Positions 29 through 9,187 of a DNA stretch of 10,567 bases are shown in pieces. The stretch is from a virus (lineage: Duplodnaviria > Heunggongvirae > Uroviricota > Caudoviricetes). The position numbers and the translations under genes were made by a program. The notes under the pieces were generated by a model. It did no database searches and was not told where the DNA came from. It saw only the letters and a list, made by a program, of their open reading frames with translations. The stretch's first letter is position 1, and each line of letters opens with the position of its first letter. The stretch lies in IMG/VR virus record IMGVR_UViG_2802429231_000001, one strand, 5' to 3'.

Positions 29-535
29 ATGAAATTATATAAGTCATTGTATAGCTTTTTATTAATGTCCTCTTTTCTGCCATTATCAGCAATGGCAGGT
101 TCTACCGTTTGGACGGTAGGAGGTGAGCAAGGGTGGAGAGAAATCTCTGCAACCAATGACGATGGTTATACAATTAACTTTTCTTGTGATGCTGGAGCAA
201 GGGAAGGTTCCGAAGATCATATAGCTGGAAGAAATTTGTATGTAAGTGGAGGGAAAGAGAATGCTGATTTTTCTACACGCGACACAATTTCTCGTAAAGC
301 TGATGTAATTACCTTAATTGTTGGTTCGGATAGCTTTAATATTGGTACGCAAAACACTGCTCCAAATCGTAGGGAATGGTATTCTTTTTGGAAGTCAGCG
401 TCAGCCACAAAAGAAAAAAACATGGATGTATATATCGGATCGCGTCGAATTACATCATTCTCTCTTGATGGAATTTCAAGTATTTACAAGGAAGCTAAAA
501 ATGATGGATGTTTAAAGCAAGATGACGGTGAATAA
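29..535 (+). CDS. Small secreted/periplasmic protein of unknown function (168 aa precursor, predicted Sec type I signal peptide, two Cys in the mature part)
   Basis: ATG at 29 preceded by AAGGA (18-22). N-terminus MKLYKSLYSFLLMSSFLPLSAMA|GS has a basic n-region, hydrophobic core and A-M-A cleavage motif (nt 29..97). There is no Cys at the cleavage site, so it is not a lipoprotein. Lower G+C than the phage genes downstream. The last 14 nt overlap the start of the next ORF. Confidence 0.6.
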   Translation: MKLYKSLYSFLLMSSFLPLSAMAGSTVWTVGGEQGWREISATNDDGYTINFSCDAGAREGSEDHIAGRNLYVSGGKENADFSTRDTISRKADVITLIVGSDSFNIGTQNTAPNRREWYSFWKSASATKEKNMDVYIGSRRITSFSLDGISSIYKEAKNDGCLKQDDGE

Positions 536-1706
536 AGTGAAGGATATTAAAAAACTTGCACTTGGCTCAGTAAGCGATCTCTATAATAGAGATTCAAATA
601 TTACCTGGCGTGATAATTTAAGTAAAATCAAAATGCCAGGATATACATCGGCAAGTGATTTATTAAAATCAGAATATGCTTCTAATAATTTGGTTAGACA
701 GTTGGCAGAACTGCAAAAAAACGCAATCATTCCATCGTATAGAGAACATATGGCAAACTTGCAAGAACAGTTAAGAATAGGGCGGCTAGCTCAAGAACAA
801 ATAGCAAGATTGAATTTGCAATCGTTACTTAGTGATTCTGTTAAAAAACAGCTTGCGAACATGACGAGCTTGAGAAGAATAAATAGCAAGCATCGTGAAT
901 TTCTTGAAATTCTACAGAAACAGGCCAAGGTTTATCCCCCGCATGATGCAAATAAATACATTCAAATGCTAAGGAAGCAGGCAGAAATTGCTATGCCGTT
1001 ACGAAACCAGTTCGAGATGCTTAATAAGCAAGCTGGTTTAAATAACATGCAAGCAATACTTAATGAATTGCGACAAAATGTAAGTCATAAGATAGATTTA
1101 AACAATGAAATAAAAGAATCATTAAAACAATATACCCTAGCGCAAAAGGCTTCATTACATCAAATAATGGAGCAAAGTCTTTCATCAATTGCACAGGCTT
1201 ATGTCGAAGGTGCTATTGAAACATCTCACAACGAAAGTGATGTTCAAGACAAAGGATTAAATAAATCCAGTTCGACGTTCATTGATTCATTTAAGTCGCT
1301 CCCTCACCCGCTTCAGTTTATTATTATGTGGCTTTTAACAGAAGTGGTGCTTGGCGCTATTGCTGATTATGCAAAAGAACAAATCTTATCGCAAATACAC
1401 AAGACAGAATCATATTCTGTATCCCTATATGAGGATGCACCAATATCAAAACAAAAATTAATTAAAGAAAACACAGAAATTAAGTGGGAAGATCTCAATG
1501 GTTTTAGGTTTATAACTGGTGATAACGTAAGATTACATGTCAGTCCTTCTTTAAATAGTGAAGTGATTGAATGCATTGGCAAAAACACAATTGTTGCTAT
1601 TTTAGATAAGAAAGATCGTCAATGGCTTTACGTGCAGGTTAAATCAGGGGATGAGTTTATTACTGGTTGGATTACACGAACATACACAAAGCCTCTTAAG
1701 GCTTGA
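522..1706 (+). CDS. Single-pass membrane protein: N-terminal coiled-coil region, one transmembrane helix, C-terminal SH3b-like domain (394 aa)
   Basis: Long ORF in the most AT-rich part of the window. Heptad-like Q/L/K/E-rich helical region at about nt 670..1210. Hydrophobic segment LQFIIMWLLTEVVLGAIA at nt 1311..1364. C-terminal segment DNVRLHVSPSLNSEVIECIGKNTIVAILDKKDRQWLYVQVKSGDEFITGWITRTY (about nt 1500..1690) matches the bacterial SH3 (SH3_3) pattern of NVR, a hydrophobic core, W-x-x-V and G-W near the end. ATG 522 overlaps the upstream ORF; an in-frame GTG at 537 is an alternative start. Confidence 0.7.
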   Translation: MTVNKVKDIKKLALGSVSDLYNRDSNITWRDNLSKIKMPGYTSASDLLKSEYASNNLVRQLAELQKNAIIPSYREHMANLQEQLRIGRLAQEQIARLNLQSLLSDSVKKQLANMTSLRRINSKHREFLEILQKQAKVYPPHDANKYIQMLRKQAEIAMPLRNQFEMLNKQAGLNNMQAILNELRQNVSHKIDLNNEIKESLKQYTLAQKASLHQIMEQSLSSIAQAYVEGAIETSHNESDVQDKGLNKSSSTFIDSFKSLPHPLQFIIMWLLTEVVLGAIADYAKEQILSQIHKTESYSVSLYEDAPISKQKLIKENTEIKWEDLNGFRFITGDNVRLHVSPSLNSEVIECIGKNTIVAILDKKDRQWLYVQVKSGDEFITGWITRTYTKPLKA

Positions 1707-1819: not shown

Positions 1820-2427
<608 letters not shown>

Positions 2428-2437
2428 GGTCGTTGAT

Positions 2438-3049
2438 ATGGGACTTAATGTTGCATCAGTAAAGTCTTATATATCTTCGGCATTAACGACGACATTATTT
2501 GGCTCCGGCGTTGGTGAGCGGGAAGTTGGTAAGCTGACGTCAATCATCATGAACAAAATGCTGTTCGCGCAAGGATGGCAGTTCTCTGTCGAAGTTGATG
2601 GGCTGGAGGGGGCAGACTTCTTTGCCAAAGACATTACCTACCACGATTACAGCATCGAATATGAAATGATTAAAATCGGCGGAGGGAATATCCTTCAGCC
2701 AACGGAGCGTTCGCCTGGGCAGATAACAATGATGGTCAGGGATACCGGTGATGGCCTCGTTTTGGACTGGTTTAAGACGGCAAAAAGTCGGGTGATCAAT
2801 CCTGACGGCACCGTGAACATACCGTCTAAATATTTGCTCAATGTGCGTATTTATCGGTTGCTGTCTTCCGGTTTAACCAAACTGGAAAATGAGATGACGG
2901 TATTCCCGGTTACTACCGGCGATGTCACCTATGCGCGGGATCAGGTCACGGAATTTAAGTCATTCCCAATGACCTTCGCATTGCACAGCACGTTTAACCA
3001 ATCCTCAAGTTCTTTGGCTTCCCTTCTGGGCTTTAGTTTTTCTCTTTGA
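2438..3049 (+). CDS. Tail tube protein of a contractile tail (T4 gp19 / Afp1 / Hcp-like tube family), 203 aa
   Basis: SD TGAGG 8 nt upstream. Motifs WQFSVEVDG...ITYHDYSIEYEMIKIGGG...SPGQITMMVRDTGDGLVLDWF parallel the conserved tube blocks recalled from Afp1 (YRFxVxVxD...IEYRDG...PGQ...ITLRKG...LFDW). Position is immediately upstream of the chaperone-position gene and the tape-measure gene. Confidence 0.7.
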   Translation: MGLNVASVKSYISSALTTTLFGSGVGEREVGKLTSIIMNKMLFAQGWQFSVEVDGLEGADFFAKDITYHDYSIEYEMIKIGGGNILQPTERSPGQITMMVRDTGDGLVLDWFKTAKSRVINPDGTVNIPSKYLLNVRIYRLLSSGLTKLENEMTVFPVTTGDVTYARDQVTEFKSFPMTFALHSTFNQSSSSLASLLGFSFSL

Positions 3050-3063
3050 ATTAAGGAGCAAGG

Positions 3064-3945
3064 ATGCTTTTACCCCTTTTCCCGCTACCATCGCGGCCAA
3101 CTGAATTGATCCAGTTCCGTCAGCCAAATATTGCTGATGCGATGCGTTTCAACTCGATAACACCGGAGGAACAAGAACAACAGACAACGGCATATTTAAA
3201 AGCCTTGCTGGCTGAACCCGCGAAACATGATCCCCTGACATGGACGGCGCAGGACCGGATTACCGCGTTATGGTGGATATTTACCGGCTCCCGTGAAACA
3301 CCGGTCGAGACATTCACCTACACCTGTAAACATTGCGGTAAAGAGCATTATTACGATTGCGATATGAATGCTCTGGCTGAAGATATCCAGGTCCTGGAAG
3401 TGGAACCTTTCATTGACGATATTGAGGTGTCTGTAGAGGGAGTGCCTTATCAATGGCGTATCGTGCCGCTTGATGGTTGGGCAATGGAAATGCTGGAGAT
3501 GCGCCGTGCAGCATTGCCACCTGAAGACGACGCGGAATTCAAAGAAGCGATCGTTGATTTGCGTTTTTGGGAATTCGCTTATCAGTGTGAGCTTTATAAC
3601 GATGTTAGCGGTACTCGTGAAGATCAGGCTGAGCGTCGTTATGAAACGATTAAACGGATGGCCATTGATACTGAATTTATGAAGCTGGCGGCACACATCC
3701 GACTGGCTCATGAAAAGCTCGAACATGGTTTACCGTGCTACATCGATAAAGGTGAAATGCGTCTTCGTCTCCCGCCGCATAAATGCCCAAACCAGGATAA
3801 AAAGGAGTCCACAGAGGGTGCGTATACCCGTCTGTGGGTGCCCTTTCGGGCTACCGACTTCATTCCACAGGTGGGGATTGAAAAGCTATCAGACCTTAGT
3901 GTCCAACCTGGTTTTGTATGGGGGTATACCGATTCAGGACGCTGA
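3064..3945 (+). CDS. Cys-containing protein of unknown function (293 aa) in the position usually occupied by tail assembly chaperones, between tube and tape measure
   Basis: Strong SD AAGGAG 6 nt upstream of ATG 3064. Contains a C-K-H-C-x6-C cluster (TYTCKHCGKEHYYDCD) plus further Cys, suggesting a possible metal-binding site. The functional call is positional only. Confidence 0.55.
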   Translation: MLLPLFPLPSRPTELIQFRQPNIADAMRFNSITPEEQEQQTTAYLKALLAEPAKHDPLTWTAQDRITALWWIFTGSRETPVETFTYTCKHCGKEHYYDCDMNALAEDIQVLEVEPFIDDIEVSVEGVPYQWRIVPLDGWAMEMLEMRRAALPPEDDAEFKEAIVDLRFWEFAYQCELYNDVSGTREDQAERRYETIKRMAIDTEFMKLAAHIRLAHEKLEHGLPCYIDKGEMRLRLPPHKCPNQDKKESTEGAYTRLWVPFRATDFIPQVGIEKLSDLSVQPGFVWGYTDSGR

Positions 3946-4026
3946 AAGGCTCACTGAATCCTATGCGTTTTTCCTGTTGGAGAAACTGGAAGAAAAACTT
4001 AAACCGAAACGGTAGGCGATAAGATC

Positions 4027-7000
4027 ATGGAAAGAAAAAACGCCAACATTGACGATGTTATAAGGACAGTTGAAACCGCCAGCGCAAAAGAGCTGGAAGA
4101 GCTTGCTGGTATCCGGGAAGCTGTTGAAGATTTGAAAGGTGGGCGAGTTGCTACTGTTGATCCTGTCTCTCGCAGCGTGTCGGCATTAAATCACACAATC
4201 GAAAATTCCCGGCCTGACTTTGTGGCCAAAGCGCCATCAGTAGACCCTATTGTTGACGCAATGAAACGGCTTAATTTAGGGGACGTTTCTCGTGTAGTTC
4301 AGGAAGATGTTGCTCAACAGGAACAGCGGGCCAAATCAACCACACCAAATGGTAAAAAACGACGCAGGAAGGCTATACCAGAGGATGTAAAGGCGCAACG
4401 GACCGAAGCAGCCGAACACGCTCGCGAAATGTTCGGTCAAAAAGGCGGTGCGCAAAAAAGCCAAAACCAACGCGATGCGCGTGGTCGTTTTATTGGAAAG
4501 TCAGGGAGTAAGGCCGCAGCGGAAGATGCCCGTGCTGAACGAGCAGAAAAGGCCAGGCGAAAAGAGGATGATGAGCGTCTAAATGCTGAATCAGGTTTAT
4601 TAAAAAAACTGTCAAAAGTAGCTGAAGGCATAGGTAACCCTTCAGAGACTCGTGCCGTCGATGCGTTAGGTTATGCCGTTGCTGGTCCATTGTGGGCCGC
4701 AGGGAAGGAGCTTGGCGGGATATCAAAAGAAGTTGGTGGATCGCTTAATGGTGCCAGAAAGTCTATTGCCGATGTGATTCGTGGCAATGACGATAACAGC
4801 CGTAGAAAAGGTTTTTTTAGGCGTAAATCGCAAAATAGTGCCGATGTCGTTCAGGTTAACACCCAAAAACGGACGGTTCAGGAACTTCAGGATCAGACCA
4901 GCGAAATTAAAGATGGCAATGACAAGATTCTCAGCGCCCTTGATCAGATAGCCAAAAACACCGGGAAAAAGAAGGGCGGCTTGCTGTCCAAATTATTTAG
5001 CCTGTTAGGGAAGGGGGCCGGTGGCGTCGCGTCGTTGTTAATGGGGCGTGGCATGCTGAAAAAAGCTGGAGCACTCGCTTTTGGCGCTCTGGGGGCAAAG
5101 AAACTTGTAGGAATGCTACGCGGTGGTGGCAAGAAGACTCTCGCCCATGAAGGCGGAGATTTGGCTGCCCGGGCAGCAGGTAAACTTGGATTAAAGGCAG
5201 TTGGTAAAGGGGCGTTACGCGCAATTCCCCTAGTCGGCACAGTGGCTGGAGGTATTTATGATGCGGTAACCGGTTGGAATGATACAGAAGCGCAACGTCG
5301 AGCGTTTGGGCTTAAATCAGGACAAGATCCATCATTCCAGCAAAAAGCCGCTTATACGTTAGCTAATGTTCTTGATATGGGGGGACTGGTATCTGGTATT
5401 AGCAGCGCCATTGGTGAGGTTCTCAAATCACTTGGATTTGAGGATATCGGCAATATGTTGCAATCATTTTCGACGGAAAGTATTGCCCTGGCCATTGATA
5501 GTGGGATTACCAACTTAGAAACATATATTTCTAACCTTGGCGACACCATTTCTACCAAGTTCGATGATTACACAGCAAAGATTGGTGATGCTGTTTCAGC
5601 ATGGTTTAGCGATACATCTAATAAGCTGCTTGAAAAGCTGGATGCCATCAAAGACTTCTTTACTGTCGATAACCTGAAACAGGTTTTCAGTGATGCAATT
5701 GATAGTGCAATTGATTTCATTAAGAACCCAGGGAAACACATTAAAGAGGCGGCTGGTAATATTTGGGATGGGGTTAAAAATTTACCAGGTAAAGCATTAG
5801 ATGCAGCGGTTGATGCCGTTAAAAATACCCCTGCGGCAATGATTGTATCAAAAATACCCAATCCGATCGGCGAGGCTAATGCGAAAGAAATCACTCCAGA
5901 GTTAAAAGCTCCGGTTAATAGCCACCAGGGGACATCTGATTCTAAAACTGAATCCGATGCCAAACAGACTAATATTGCTGCCCGCGTGATAAATGCGGCT
6001 CTGGATATGGCGAAAGATAGCAATAAAACAGTTAAAGAAACTGCTAATCAGATTATCAATGCAAATGCCGTAGAAACAGGAAATAAAGCAGCACAAACAA
6101 TTGATGCTGCCTTGGGGCAGTCTGCTACAGGTAAGGAGGAAGCATTAAGTGCATATGAGATAGATAAACGTCGATTTAACAATGGCAAGGATGTTTCTTT
6201 GCCAAAATTAAATGCTGCCGGATACCAATGGATTTCTGACAATGCCGATTATTTTGATGAGCTTGAACGTAAGTATGGGCTTGAAAAAGGGATTCTGTCA
6301 GCAGTTGCATCCGCAGAGTCTAGTGCAGGCCAGAGAACTGGAAATCCAGTAGACAAAAACGGGAACAAACTTTCATCTGCCCTTGGGGCTTTTCAGATCA
6401 CTAAAGGTACAAGGGAGGATCTTGGACTCAGCGATGCTGATGCCATGGATACACGAAAAGCAGCTGATGGTGCCGCCAGATACCTAAGTATGCTGATGAA
6501 CCGTTATAACGGTGATCAGGGTCGTGCAATAGCTGCCTATCATGCTGGTATGGGGCATGTTGATAAGGGGAGAGTAGTCGCAGGTACCGGCGAATATGTT
6601 ACTCGTGTCAGAGGGTATCAGCAGATGCTCAATAATGGTGCCGTTTATGGCTCTAAGGTAGATCATAGCGCACCAGCAATTTACGAAAAGATACCTGATA
6701 ACGCCGTTATCGATCAGTCTACTGGCCTGGCGTTTACCCCTGGTGATAGCCCGTTTGAGAAAGGCGGTCTGGTAGACAAAATCGGCAATGCTGTTGGCGT
6801 TAACGATCTGGTCAACAAATTCATGAATGGCCGGGGTATGCGTCGGGAAGTCGTTCAGGGAACGCTCGAAGAACGTGCACGAGGGAAGGGGACCGCAACA
6901 GCAGCTGGCAATGTGTATGTTGATACTCCGATGCCAGTTGAAGAGGCGCGTCCGGTGGCCAGCAACTCAAGTTACTTTGACCAACTCGGCGCACAAATGG

Positions 7001-7401
7001 GGATTGATGGACTATTCGATAAACTCCGCAACTCGCCGGGGATGCGGAAAAATAATGCGCTTGAACCAGCCTCCACGTCCCAGGTGACGACTGCCGCCAA
7101 CGATTTGCAGCAACCAACCGGTCGTATGCAGATAGACGGACAGGTTATTAGTGACCTTGGCGGCTCCGGTGCCAAGCCGACAATGCAGTTGGCTGATAAT
7201 ACCGTTTCACTTGATGGTGAAACGAAGCGGCTGTTTGCGCAGATGACCTCATTGCTTGCCAGGATTGAAGAGCACACCAAAGACTCGGCGAAAGGCCAGG
7301 GAACTGTCGTAAAGGTCAGCACGCCTCAGCCGGGCGTTATGCGCACGGTACCACTGTCAATTGATGATCCGTTGATGAATGACTACGCGAGAGTTGATTG
7401 A
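4027..7401 (+). CDS. Tail tape-measure-like / injection protein with embedded soluble lytic transglycosylase (SLT) domain, 1124 aa (architecture resembles phage P1 Sit)
   Basis: Longest ORF in the window. N-terminal charged helical region; K/R/E-rich low-complexity stretch (about nt 4335..4610); Gly/Ala-rich hydrophobic glycine-zipper-like segments (about nt 4965..5280); SLT domain at about nt 6200..6620 with ...SAVASAESSAGQ... (putative catalytic Glu codon 6316..6318), GAFQIT and AAYHAG motifs typical of family 1 lytic transglycosylases. The SD is weak. The stop TGA 7399..7401 overlaps the next start. Confidence 0.8.
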   Translation: MERKNANIDDVIRTVETASAKELEELAGIREAVEDLKGGRVATVDPVSRSVSALNHTIENSRPDFVAKAPSVDPIVDAMKRLNLGDVSRVVQEDVAQQEQRAKSTTPNGKKRRRKAIPEDVKAQRTEAAEHAREMFGQKGGAQKSQNQRDARGRFIGKSGSKAAAEDARAERAEKARRKEDDERLNAESGLLKKLSKVAEGIGNPSETRAVDALGYAVAGPLWAAGKELGGISKEVGGSLNGARKSIADVIRGNDDNSRRKGFFRRKSQNSADVVQVNTQKRTVQELQDQTSEIKDGNDKILSALDQIAKNTGKKKGGLLSKLFSLLGKGAGGVASLLMGRGMLKKAGALAFGALGAKKLVGMLRGGGKKTLAHEGGDLAARAAGKLGLKAVGKGALRAIPLVGTVAGGIYDAVTGWNDTEAQRRAFGLKSGQDPSFQQKAAYTLANVLDMGGLVSGISSAIGEVLKSLGFEDIGNMLQSFSTESIALAIDSGITNLETYISNLGDTISTKFDDYTAKIGDAVSAWFSDTSNKLLEKLDAIKDFFTVDNLKQVFSDAIDSAIDFIKNPGKHIKEAAGNIWDGVKNLPGKALDAAVDAVKNTPAAMIVSKIPNPIGEANAKEITPELKAPVNSHQGTSDSKTESDAKQTNIAARVINAALDMAKDSNKTVKETANQIINANAVETGNKAAQTIDAALGQSATGKEEALSAYEIDKRRFNNGKDVSLPKLNAAGYQWISDNADYFDELERKYGLEKGILSAVASAESSAGQRTGNPVDKNGNKLSSALGAFQITKGTREDLGLSDADAMDTRKAADGAARYLSMLMNRYNGDQGRAIAAYHAGMGHVDKGRVVAGTGEYVTRVRGYQQMLNNGAVYGSKVDHSAPAIYEKIPDNAVIDQSTGLAFTPGDSPFEKGGLVDKIGNAVGVNDLVNKFMNGRGMRREVVQGTLEERARGKGTATAAGNVYVDTPMPVEEARPVASNSSYFDQLGAQMGIDGLFDKLRNSPGMRKNNALEPASTSQVTTAANDLQQPTGRMQIDGQVISDLGGSGAKPTMQLADNTVSLDGETKRLFAQMTSLLARIEEHTKDSAKGQGTVVKVSTPQPGVMRTVPLSIDDPLMNDYARVD

Positions 7402-7757
7402 TGGCCAACAATAACGAAATTGATCCTTTGCTGACGCTGGAGTTATCCGGCGTAAAAACGTATGAGTCCCAGGAGGAGGCCTGGGGCGCTCGTTTATATG
7501 AGTGGCTAAACACTTATCAGGGTGAGGTATACGGGGATCCGTCATGGGGCAATGTTTTACCGCAGTTTAAACACGAACCGACCAACTTGTCGCATGTTCA
7601 AATTGCGGTTGAGGCAATGCTGTTGCAAAAACTGACGATAGATTTACCTGACATACCGATTTCTGGCTTGTCAGTAGCCGAGGGAGATGCTTTTGATAAG
7701 TTGAAAATATCCATTCGTATCAGGGATATAACTATCACACAGGACGTGGTGCTATGA
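7401..7757 (+). CDS. Small baseplate protein, possibly GPW/gp25-like wedge protein (118 aa from ATG 7401; an in-frame TTG at 7398 is also possible)
   Basis: ATG 7401 overlaps the upstream stop by 1 nt (TGATG). Size and position match gp25/GPW-like proteins. The stretch LNTYQGEVYGDPSWGNVL...HEP loosely resembles the gp25-family block (L-T-x-x-GER-x-x-P-x-FG ... EPR). Weak motif support only. Confidence 0.5.
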   Translation: MANNNEIDPLLTLELSGVKTYESQEEAWGARLYEWLNTYQGEVYGDPSWGNVLPQFKHEPTNLSHVQIAVEAMLLQKLTIDLPDIPISGLSVAEGDAFDKLKISIRIRDITITQDVVL

Positions 7758-9187
7758 GTAAAACAACACCGACTAAAGACAGTATTCGTGCAGAGTTTGA
7801 AGAGCTTGTCGAGAAAGATTCATTCTGGTCGAAGTTTGTCGGCTCTCAATTTGTCTCGATGCTGACATTGTTTATTACCCAGATTGTCTACAGGTGCTTT
7901 CAGTATGCCGATGCGGCGCTGGCTGAAGGCTTTATATCGACCGCGACGCGGCGTTCCTCTATCCTGGCAGCGGCAGAAACGAATAGTTACGTTGGTACCA
8001 AGCCAACACCGTCATCGGGGATGATTGAGATCACCGCCACAAGTGAAGATGCCCCAGCGGTAATTCCCAAAAACATGCCTTTAATATCTGACGACCAGTA
8101 CCCTTACATGACTATGGATGTATGCAGGTTGGTTGACGGCACCGGTACGGTAGAAGTGGCACAGTTGGAAATCCAGGAGGTGACATATACCGTTACGGCT
8201 GCCAAAGAATTTCTGGAAGTCGTGTTATCAAAGGCTCTCACTGCTGTCTGCTATAAGCTGGAAGTATTCGTGACGACCGATGGTAAGACCACGCAGTGGT
8301 CTTCCAGCACAATGTTCCGGTTAGCTGGTAGTAAAAGCCAGGTCTACGTTGAGTTTTATAAACCATCCGAACAGTTGGGTGTCCGATTCGGCGATGGGCT
8401 AATTGGGCAAATACCGCCAGAAGGCTCGACAATTACGCTTAAGGTATGGTGCACCAACGGCGATATAACCCTGGTTGCTGGCCAAAACCTGACTCCTGTT
8501 GATTCTGCGGCTAATTTAGCTAATTTGATTTCAGTTAAGACAACGACACCTATAACCGCAGGTACCGATGCTGAAACAACGGAGATCACACGTAACCGTG
8601 CACAATATTACCTTGCCTATGATGATCAGGTCGTATGGGGCGGGGACTATACGTATTTTCTGGTGCGTAACATCCCGGGACTGTCCTGGGTAAAGGCATG
8701 GGGCGAAGGCCAGCAAGAGAAATTAGATGGTGCTTATAATGTTCGGAATATCAATAAGATATTTATTTCAGGATGGCATCCAAACAAAAGCCAGTCAGAG
8801 CTTGAAGAAATGATCCTGGCCGCCTTTAAGAAGGTGCCGAATGAGTTGAACAAGAAATTCTCGTATAAAGAGGTCAGAAAACTACCCTTTAAGATCACCA
8901 TCACTGGGCGGATATCGGCAAGCCTGACCATTGAGAACGTGACTGATGAGCTGAAGTCGGCACTGGAAACAAAATTTGGGCGTGACTCAACTTTCTTTGA
9001 TCCGAACCGTGTCGGCAAGTACATCCTAATCAAGAAAAAAGACGTTTGGGCATTTATCGAAACGCTGGGTTATTTCCGCGACTTTTATCTGGAATTTGTC
9101 GAGTGGAATGAGTCCAACGGCTTTTACGATTTCGTTTATCTGGATACAGAAAACTCCACCTTTAATATTTCGTATGAGGAGGAGTGA
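7754..9187 (+). CDS. Putative baseplate J-like (gp6/gpJ-family) baseplate protein, 477 aa
   Basis: ATG 7754 overlaps the upstream stop (ATGA). Lies immediately after the gp25-like gene, as in P2 (W-J) and Mu (gp46-gp47) baseplate modules. Size is compatible. No motif was verified by eye. Confidence 0.55.
   Translation: MSKTTPTKDSIRAEFEELVEKDSFWSKFVGSQFVSMLTLFITQIVYRCFQYADAALAEGFISTATRRSSILAAAETNSYVGTKPTPSSGMIEITATSEDAPAVIPKNMPLISDDQYPYMTMDVCRLVDGTGTVEVAQLEIQEVTYTVTAAKEFLEVVLSKALTAVCYKLEVFVTTDGKTTQWSSSTMFRLAGSKSQVYVEFYKPSEQLGVRFGDGLIGQIPPEGSTITLKVWCTNGDITLVAGQNLTPVDSAANLANLISVKTTTPITAGTDAETTEITRNRAQYYLAYDDQVVWGGDYTYFLVRNIPGLSWVKAWGEGQQEKLDGAYNVRNINKIFISGWHPNKSQSELEEMILAAFKKVPNELNKKFSYKEVRKLPFKITITGRISASLTIENVTDELKSALETKFGRDSTFFDPNRVGKYILIKKKDVWAFIETLGYFRDFYLEFVEWNESNGFYDFVYLDTENSTFNISYEEE

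Follow-up and report, generated by a model that had tools for sequence, protein, structure and literature searches.

The closest described relatives of the protein considered here are the Sit proteins of phages P1 (YP_006507.1, 1140 aa) and P7 (AAQ07509.1, 1130 aa), which are encoded in the same operon and likewise have the SLT domain at roughly two-thirds of their length. The P1 record (annotation of 1998-2004) describes sit as "structural injection transglycosylase; putative tail ruler," and later papers name Sit as the P1 tape measure protein, which is held to occupy the lumen of the tail tube and the center of the baseplate. This published view follows from the "putative tail ruler" annotation and from three kinds of experiment. 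First, P1 Sit was detected in virions by LC-MS/MS, and that paper adds a size argument based on a tail of 120 nm. Second, the P1 cryo-EM paper labels Sit as the TMP; it reports low-resolution density at the center of the baseplate, and Sit itself is not resolved. Third, P1 sit is essential by CRISPRi (knock-down blocks plaque formation), although polar effects on pmgA, bplA, and gene 16 could account for this. Sit is already known, then: its transglycosylase motif was reported in 1998, and its tape-measure role is a textbook assumption.

The window, by which we mean the whole 10,567-nucleotide stretch of DNA that we analyzed, is 99.9% identical over 10.5 kb to the E. coli plasmid NZ_CP012491, and its relatives at 99.9% identity are IncY P1-like phage-plasmids of E. 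coli. The first-pass annotation had described a 1124-aa open reading frame at 4027..7401, and we find it there, on the plus strand and with an ATG start. Sequence comparison identifies it as sit from a P1/P7-type phage-plasmid (IncY, Escherichia). The protein matches phrog_2533 over its full length (positions 1-1130, 2268 bits). The gene is 97-98% identical to P1/P7 sit at the nucleotide level across 82% of its length, and the proteins are about 99% identical across aa 1-686 and 894-1124. Full-length similarity and a conserved position in the LPsit operon place it in the orthologue group of P1 Sit. The exact or near-exact protein is also present in RefSeq, and its clusters occur on more than 200 contigs. 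Our best explanation overall, to which we give a probability of about 0.8, is that this is a P1-type Sit, a virion tape measure with an exchangeable internal SLT lytic transglycosylase.

The late operon has the order LPsit-pmgC-tub-pmgB-sit-pmgA-bplA-16, which is identical in P1 and P7:

1811..1829, plus strand: late promoter LPsit, with -22 box AAATGACAA (1811-1819) and -10 box TAGAAT (1824-1829), aligned to the annotated LPsit of P1 and P7
1861..2427, plus strand: pmgC (188 aa), head-tail adaptor in P1 (phrog_1851, E = 1.5e-102; P1 position)
2438..3049, plus strand: tub (203 aa), baseplate tube initiator, "tail tube" in the old annotation (phrog_1842, E = 5e-106; P1 annotation)
3064..3945, plus strand: pmgB (293 aa), essential tail-morphogenesis gene, putative tape-measure chaperone (phrog_1854, E = 1e-154)
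4027..7401, plus strand: sit (1124 aa), virion tail-lumen or tape-measure protein with an internal SLT lytic transglycosylase (ATG start; phrog_2533; P1/P7 alignment)
7401..7757, plus strand: pmgA (118 aa), gp25-like baseplate wedge protein (PHROG match; P1 annotation; literature)
7754..9187, plus strand: bplA (477 aa), baseplate wedge protein of the Baseplate_J or gp6-like type (Pfam and PHROG matches; P1 annotation; cryo-EM paper)

The -22 box of LPsit has one mismatch to P1, and a search for the promoter pattern gives one hit in the window and none in 200 shuffles. The ATG of pmgA overlaps the stop codon of sit (TGATG). The protein had been placed after tube and chaperone-position genes. 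The order pmgC, tub, pmgB, sit stands, but Tub should not be taken for the major tube protein: in the P1 cryo-EM paper, Tub is the tube initiator of the baseplate (and PmgC is the head-tail adaptor). A pmgB knock-out makes no tails, and its chaperone role is a published hypothesis.

Within Sit, we distinguish the following parts:

4144..4440, plus strand: 99-aa unit, aa 40-138 (sequence comparison of variants)
4975..5436, plus strand: Gly/Ala/Lys-rich, moderately hydrophobic zone, aa 317-470 (composition and hydropathy)
5158..5661, plus strand: best-conserved core of the Sit family, aa 378-545 (BLASTP, phrog_7182)
5872..5922, plus strand: 17-aa unit EANAKEITPELKAPVNS, aa 616-632 (sequence comparison of variants)
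6085..6705, plus strand: exchanged cassette with the SLT domain, aa 687-893 (P1/P7 alignment)
6250..6567, plus strand: Pfam SLT (PF01464) match, aa 742-847 (Pfam profile search)
6316..6318, plus strand: Glu764 (GAG), predicted catalytic acid in the motif A-E-S (82-domain alignment; T7 gp16 alignment)
6706..7398, plus strand: C-terminal region, aa 894-1124 (about 99% identical to P1/P7)

The tape-measure reading that was proposed from the sequence agrees with the published view of the P1 orthologue, and we consider it supported, with caveats from the ruler arithmetic and the profile searches (below). Sit lies where a tape measure is expected: six diverged lineages keep the order pmgB-sit-pmgA-bplA. 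The homologues from D6 and from the Pantoea, Serratia, and Vibrio P1-like plasmids, which have 1048 to 1318 aa and no SLT domain, are also encoded between pmgB and pmgA. The core of Sit (aa 378-545) is common to the D6, Pantoea, and Serratia homologues, with 35-44% identity (BLASTP, E = 1e-20 to 1e-29). The Pantoea homologue shares the C-terminus of Sit as well, over the final 80 or so residues. The C-terminal region of Sit, which presumably docks in the baseplate hub, has no match in Pfam even at E ≤ 10. The "glycine-zipper hydrophobic segments" that had been noted are partly borne out. There is a Gly-rich zone (aa 301-400 contain 22 Gly and 17 Ala, with a net charge of +16), and four GxxxG motifs lie within aa 310-420. 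But the highest 19-residue Kyte-Doolittle mean, 1.35, falls short of what is usual for a membrane-spanning helix, and Sit has no match among the glycine-zipper models of Pfam. A full-length single-sequence AlphaFold model (pLDDT 39) was unusable, and we drew no helical fraction from it.

Sit might instead be an ejected, hub-associated "injection" protein, muralytic and membrane active, that does not fix tail length by itself; some other mechanism would do so, or other factors would act along with Sit. The original name, "structural injection transglycosylase," fits this idea, and so does the ruler arithmetic. At about 1.5 Å per residue, with the globular SLT domain counted in, 1124-1140 aa would span about 1690-1710 Å (1686 Å for 1124 aa). 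The P1 tube has 53 rings of 40 Å, or 2120 Å (the whole P1 tail is 2450 Å), so Sit is about 20% short, and the tube would need 1.89 Å per residue of the whole protein. The search with tape-measure profiles that the first-pass annotation had called for also failed to support a tape measure: no curated tape-measure profile of Pfam matched at E ≤ 10 (N-terminal 685 aa and C-terminal 235 aa), and none of NCBIfam matched Sit at E ≤ 0.1. Furthermore, the length of Sit varies by about 10% among near-identical phages, with no reported classes of tail length. On the other hand, the hub protein gp6 is gp27/Mu gp44-like and has only 338 aa, and no other P1 gene of suitable size is known. The place of sit between the putative chaperone and wedge genes is the classical one for a tape measure, and a PHROG with the label "tail length tape measure protein" is matched by the D6-type homologues (the only Sit homologues for which this is so). 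On balance, we think it unlikely that Sit is an injection protein of this kind, and we prefer to view it as a tape measure.

Nature has already provided length variants of this tape-measure candidate. A scan of viral contigs, which we used to survey both alleles and lengths but not for the frameshift comparison below, yielded 80 near-identical loci. Natural Sit variants range from about 1100 to 1263 aa and arise from in-frame duplications: the 99-aa unit is doubled in the variants of 1223-1263 aa, and the 17-aa unit is present in 1, 2, or 3 copies. We found no length-change experiment on Sit in the literature, and these two kinds of duplication make the ruler role directly testable.

Turning to the enzymatic part, sequence and structural modelling confirm that the family-1 (SLT/GH23) lytic transglycosylase domain of Sit is complete; it is predicted to be active. 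We assign it because four tests agree, and the original reading of this domain holds up in each. First, PF01464 matches with 52.3 bits (cut-off 21.3, E = 5e-14). Second, the motifs are where they had been claimed to be: the codon at 6316..6318 is Glu764 (GAG) in AESSAG (aa 763-768), and GAFQIT and AAYHAG lie at aa 787-792 and 836-841. In an alignment of 82 diverse SLT domains, E764, S765, G787, Q790, Y838, and G841 fall in invariant columns, so that Sit has the catalytic Glu and the Ser of motif I, the G-x-x-Q motif, and the A-Y-N/H-x-G motif. Third, a six-sequence profile of the cassette, when compared to the PDB, matches T7 gp16, MltC, Slt, Slt70, and 9b45_a ("gp41 Tape measure protein"). 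With the cassette as a single sequence, the PDB search gave no match, and a word-indexed search of proteins, with the cassette as the sole query, gave just fragments. Fourth, an AlphaFold model of the domain (pLDDT 82.4, pTM 0.76; folded at about aa 709-869) has the goose-lysozyme-like all-alpha fold, and the top Foldseek matches in the PDB are Slt, MltF, MltC, MltD, MltE, and g-type lysozymes, each with a probability of 1.0. The domain spans about 66-77% of the length of Sit and is followed by about 255-277 residues, which agrees with the earlier estimates of two-thirds and 270. We found no enzymology or ejection assay of Sit in the literature.

Similar domains are found in other virion proteins. 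Among solved structures, T7 gp16, a virion protein that is released at infection, is the closest in sequence to the SLT profile (E = 3e-15), and its residue 37, in a TES motif, aligns with Glu764. It differs from Sit in being a podovirus core protein whose SLT domain is N-terminal, and there is no similarity beyond the domain. The protein in 9b45_a has an embedded SLT domain at residues 488-580 of 858. Mycobacteriophage TM4 gp17 is a tape measure with an embedded muralytic motif, but that motif is not SLT. The scaffolds of TM4 gp17 and 9b45_a are unrelated to Sit in sequence. The TM4 motif aids the infection of stationary-phase cells and is not required for viability. Because that embedded motif is dispensable under good growth, we suspect by analogy that the SLT activity of Sit may matter only under particular conditions.

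Could the SLT domain be a late lysis enzyme (an endolysin) with no part in entry? The C-terminal half of Sit does match some PHROGs labelled "endolysin" (phrog_669, and phrog_873 for the D6 type). However, Sit is a 120 kDa virion component that is encoded in a tail and baseplate operon, and T7 gp16, which is ejected, and a tape measure protein deposited in the PDB are among the nearest solved relatives of the domain. P1 also encodes its lysis functions in a cassette of their own (lyz, lydA/B), which counts against a lysis role for Sit. We find a lysis role very improbable.

The cassette is the one part of Sit that differs strongly between the window and P1/P7. These roughly 207 aa are about 37% identical (about 45-55% at the nucleotide level) and have other loop lengths, while the flanks are 95-100% identical; the window protein is 6-16 aa shorter overall. 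The nearest phage relative of the window cassette is in the Sit homologue of Cronobacter phage JK004 (QVJ82365.1, 1068 aa), with 56-78% identity. The gene order of JK004 is that of the window, and outside of the cassette its Sit is about 50% identical to ours, which equals the distance between P1 Sit and JK004. In D6-type relatives, an unrelated endolysin-like module stands where the cassette would be, and it matches PDB 7q47_A ("Endolysin," E = 8e-18). Judging by these alignments, two divergent SLT alleles exist among P1-like elements, and the muralytic unit acts as a cassette that is exchanged within a conserved scaffold. The window-type allele is present in 61 PLSDB plasmid records, versus 414 for the P1-type allele, and at the DNA level it is absent from sequenced phage records. 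The cassette does not stand out as foreign by its GC content (0.459, against 0.461 in the P1 cassette).

Both of these alleles retain every invariant SLT residue despite being only about 37% identical, and the replacement, where there is one, is another muralytic-type module, which points to selection for SLT activity. For the same reasons, and even though some relatives have exchanged the whole domain for another, we give hardly any credence to the idea that it is an inactive relic that serves only as a structural spacer.

If Sit is a tape measure with an active SLT domain, then by analogy to other phages we propose the following. Sit, aided by PmgB, would lie inside the growing tail tube during assembly. 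Upon contraction of the sheath, it would exit via the tip of the tube, and the SLT domain would cut the MurNAc-GlcNAc bonds of peptidoglycan locally. We infer that such ejection and local cutting would widen the path of the tube and the DNA through the periplasm. The Gly-rich hydrophobic core of Sit may touch the inner membrane.

An extension of pmgB would fit the tape-measure reading. Tape-measure genes are preceded by a frameshifted pair of tail-assembly chaperones, and a conserved +1-frame extension of pmgB resembles such a pair. The relevant features are as follows:

3841..3849, plus strand: candidate +1 frameshift site CCC TTT CGG inside pmgB, a hypothesis (comparison of 13 loci)
3845..4015, plus strand: +1-frame extension of pmgB (frame conservation)

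In the 13 loci that we examined (about nine lineages), the +1 frame is open and its peptide is conserved, and the +1 frame scores best in 14 of 15 pairwise comparisons. (A scan of genome contigs with PmgB gave two identical loci only.) TTT CGG is kept in 12 of the 13 loci, while D6 has TTT CTC. Two stop codons delimit the site: a +1-frame stop lies three codons upstream of the TTT in one locus (L100), and a zero-frame stop lies nine codons downstream of it in Vibrio. The putative long form of PmgB would have 316 aa and would end in ...VPF|GLPTSFHRWGLKSYQTLVSNLVLYGGIPIQDAERLTESYAFFLLEKLEEKLKPKR*, with its stop 11 nt before the ATG of sit and with LWVPFGLPTSFHR as the trans-frame tryptic peptide. 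These patterns suggest an undescribed frameshift in the chaperone gene, as a candidate.

We also considered another shift site and another origin of the +1 frame. A G5 run (TGGGGGT, at about 3918-3924) is absent from Pantoea, Serratia, D6, and Vibrio and lies downstream of where the conservation of the +1 frame starts, so we rejected it as the shift site. An independent small gene is disfavored, as D6 has no ATG, GTG, or TTG upstream of the conserved motif, although there are possible starts elsewhere (ATG in JK004 and TTG in others). An argument from the rarity of CGG is weak, as CGG accounts for 28 of the 135 Arg codons in the operon.

Taken jointly, a programmed +1 frameshift in pmgB at CCC_UUU_CGG (giving about 316 aa) would supply the G/GT-type chaperone pair that has been missing from P1-like myophages, the scaffold of Sit would be modular, with swapped muralytic cassettes (two SLT alleles and an endolysin-type module), and Sit would fall outside the rule of 1.5 Å per residue. 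We regard this combination as an even bet.

Our results serve mainly to anchor a correct annotation of the operon for the tail and baseplate in P1-like phage-plasmids, a group that commonly carries resistance genes in Enterobacteriaceae. The pmgB extension is a concrete candidate, open to testing, for the frameshifted chaperone that until now seemed to be missing from P1. And the length variants, along with the swapped muralytic modules, are natural material for asking whether Sit measures the unusually long tail of P1 and what wall cutting contributes.

The gene at 4027..7401 (+ strand, ATG start, 1124 aa), which the first-pass annotation placed correctly, is a P1-type sit gene within its operon. 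Its DNA is 97-98% identical to sit of P7 and P1 across 82% of the gene, the whole window is 99.9% identical to the E. coli IncY plasmid pCFSAN004176P_03, and about a thousand plasmids in PLSDB match the window at least partially. The PHROG names of the neighbours (PmgB-like, PmgC-like) pointed to phage P1, and the gene order, pmgC-tub-pmgB-sit-pmgA-bplA-16-R, is that of P1 and P7. Finding sit is a rediscovery, given the earlier P1 annotation, the literature, and the copies in RefSeq. In the P1 record the product is a [quoted passage not shown]; a GenBank entry from 1998 names it "structural lytic transglycosylase." Gonzales et al. 2022 found Sit by LC-MS/MS of purified virions, named it the tape measure protein, and put its SLT domain at about residues 750-900. 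A 2026 cryo-EM paper on P1 lists Sit as the TMP, with Sit itself unresolved and low-resolution density at the baseplate centre, and a CRISPRi screen scored sit as essential. So the virion location and essentiality of Sit are known from literature on the P1 orthologue. RefSeq includes the same or almost the same 1124-aa protein, in clusters that occur on >200 contigs. What is worth following is the swap of a cassette within sit, the length variants of Sit, the failed ruler arithmetic, and a candidate frameshift in pmgB. The features of the window that we refer to below are:

1811-1829: late promoter LPsit, conserved
3841-4015, + strand: extension of pmgB in the +1 frame, including the candidate shift site, conserved in relatives
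3841-3849, + strand: candidate shift site CCC TTT CGG, of which TTT CGG is conserved

A perfect 11-bp inverted repeat (CTCGTAGAATC ... GATTCTACGAG, 13-nt spacer, window 1820-1854) lies over the -10 box of LPsit and is kept in P1 and P7. Farther upstream, window 29-1706 is a variable accessory locus adjoining the c4/icd/ant region: a low-GC stretch (0.34-0.37) with ORFs of 168 aa and 394 aa, the latter with an SH3_3 domain at its C-terminus; the corresponding site is occupied by simABC in P1 and by upf50.5/upf50.0 in P7. Downstream of sit, RefSeq names BplA (7754-9187) a "bleomycin hydrolase" in many P1-like plasmids. This looks like a propagated annotation error, as both Pfam (Baseplate_J, gp6-like) and the P1 cryo-EM paper identify BplA as a baseplate wedge protein.

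The SLT domain of the window's Sit is intact, as judged from its sequence. All three motifs that had been proposed are present (AESSAG at aa 763-768, GAFQIT at aa 787-792, and AAYHAG at aa 836-841), the putative catalytic Glu is indeed Glu764 (codon 6316-6318), and Pfam PF01464 matches aa 742-847 (E=5e-14, well over the gathering score). A profile built from six Sit-type SLT domains matched, in the PDB, T7 gp16 (E=3e-15), MltC, P. aeruginosa Slt, E. coli Slt70, and 9b45_a, which was deposited as "gp41 Tape measure protein" and has an internal SLT domain. Glu764 aligns with the catalytic Glu of T7 gp16, residue 37, which lies within its TES motif. Alignment with 81 diverse SLT domains shows E764, S765, A785, G787, Q790, G829, A837, Y838, and G841 to be invariant. 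Given this alignment, AlphaFold produced a confident model of aa 700-900 (pLDDT 82.4, pTM 0.76), whose best matches in the PDB are all family-1 lytic transglycosylases or goose-type lysozymes (probability 1.0). By every aspect of sequence and predicted fold, this is an SLT domain and a predicted transglycosylase.

Comparisons with relatives indicate that this module is a swapped cassette. The window's Sit is ~99% identical to Sit of P1/P7 at aa 1-686 and 894-1124, but only ~37% identical at aa 687-893. At the DNA level, identity falls from >=95% to 27-62% (mostly 45-55%) at about nt 6085-6705 and then returns to 98-100%. Cronobacter phage JK004 has a Sit homologue that, within the cassette, shares 56-78% identity with the window and 22-46% with P1; outside the cassette it is equally distant from both. 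PLSDB plasmids carry the window allele 61 times and the P1 allele 414 times, and at the DNA level the window allele is absent from sequenced phage records. The 77 complete sit ORFs in P1-like contigs from IMG/VR comprise 63 of P1/P7 type, 11 of window type, and 3 that are truncated. (The truncated ORFs, among loci L007-L086, encode 265, 492, and 499 aa and may be defective prophages or sequencing errors.) The distant homologues in D6, Pantoea, Serratia, and Vibrio share a core with window aa 378-545 and lack any SLT domain; at the equivalent site, D6 has a module that matches PDB 7q47_A, "Endolysin" (E=8e-18). The catalytic residues are all kept in both SLT alleles, and the replacements are of muralytic type, which speaks in favour of selection for wall degradation at this position. 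Among the phage-plasmid papers that we searched, we found none that describes this variation.

Whether Sit is a tape measure is less clear than the literature implies. The first-pass annotation had called it tape-measure-like, and in favour of this, the P1 orthologue is a virion protein, and in six diverged lineages sit has a putative chaperone gene upstream of it and the wedge genes downstream. On the other hand, tape-measure profiles in Pfam and NCBIfam do not match any part of Sit, and the classical length rule fails: 1124-1140 residues at 1.5 Å each give 1690-1710 Å, even with the globular SLT domain included, versus a P1 tube of 2120 Å (53 rings with a 40 Å rise) and a whole tail of 2450 Å. 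(Gonzales et al. 2022, in their size argument, assumed a tail of 120 nm.) If Sit is a simple ruler, much of it must be more extended than a helix; structure prediction for the full-length protein was uninformative (pLDDT 39). A tape measure is still the best reading, because there is no other candidate gene, the protein is found in virions, its gene is suitably placed, and homologues of the D6 type match a PHROG with the label tape measure; that it acts as a ruler is inferred. Overall, a tape-measure-like protein with an SLT domain is supported.

Natural variants offer a ready-made test of the ruler hypothesis. Close relatives with the window's SLT allele have Sit of 1223, 1231, 1240, or 1257 aa (P0007, P0013, P0015, P0025, and P0049 are the length-variant proteins). 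The added length comes from a 99-aa unit that is present twice (window aa 40-138, nt 4144-4440), one or two further copies of a 17-aa unit, EANAKEITPELKAPVNS (aa 616-632, nt 5872-5922; 1-3 copies among natural variants), and eight additional residues in the Gly-rich zone. All of the length changes are confined to the N-terminal two-thirds. Lengths range from about 1100 to 1263 aa, and both allele classes fall into the same two groups (about 1100-1145 and 1225-1263 aa).

The first-pass annotation referred to "chaperone-position genes." Tail formation requires PmgB, for which a role as tape-measure chaperone has been proposed from its position alone. We suggest that pmgB may contain an undescribed programmed +1 frameshift, which would yield a hypothetical 316-aa PmgB-long. 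In the window, the +1 frame stays open beyond the pmgB stop and closes 11 nt short of the sit ATG. The extension is also found in JK004, Pantoea, Serratia, D6, and Vibrio, and in seven other viral contigs (these twelve loci are L004, L087-L090, L093-L098, and L100), always with a conserved motif of the form W-x-T-L-(I/V)-N-N-L-x-L-Y-G-x-Q-P. Where a sit start could be located, the end of the extension falls in the range from 11 nt upstream of sit to 4 nt within it. Beyond the pmgB stop, the +1 frame scored highest in 14 of 15 pairwise comparisons and had no stops in the loci compared; between the window and JK004, third codon positions are favoured, with 10 of the 18 substitutions. In D6, there is no ATG, GTG, or TTG upstream of the motif in this frame. 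The shift would be bounded by a +1-frame stop in L100, three codons before the conserved TTT CGG, and by a zero-frame stop in Vibrio, nine codons after it. On CCC_UUU_C, both tRNAs could re-pair one base downstream. Tail-chaperone genes shift -1, -2 (Mu), or +1, depending on the phage, according to a review, and the literature combining "pmgB" and "frameshift" does not describe a shift in pmgB. A pmgB deletion was complemented only 4.7-fold by ppmgB, which fits a missing extension but is not diagnostic, as pmgA and pmgC were also complemented poorly. If the frameshift is real, it would lend weight to PmgB as the chaperone and to Sit as the tape measure. A related point is that the annotated sit start of phage D6 (L087, 5331-5440) probably lies some 36-45 codons upstream of the true one: the conserved +1 ORF in pmgB extends to 5437, and residue 45 of the annotated Sit is where the phrog_7182 profile starts.

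We infer that Sit would line the tube lumen during tail assembly, that contraction would expel it via the tube tip, and that its SLT domain would then cut peptidoglycan locally. Because P1 gp5 is without the lysozyme domain found in T4 gp5, Sit probably provides the wall-cutting activity. By analogy with TM4, this activity may be relevant chiefly when the cell wall is altered or highly cross-linked.
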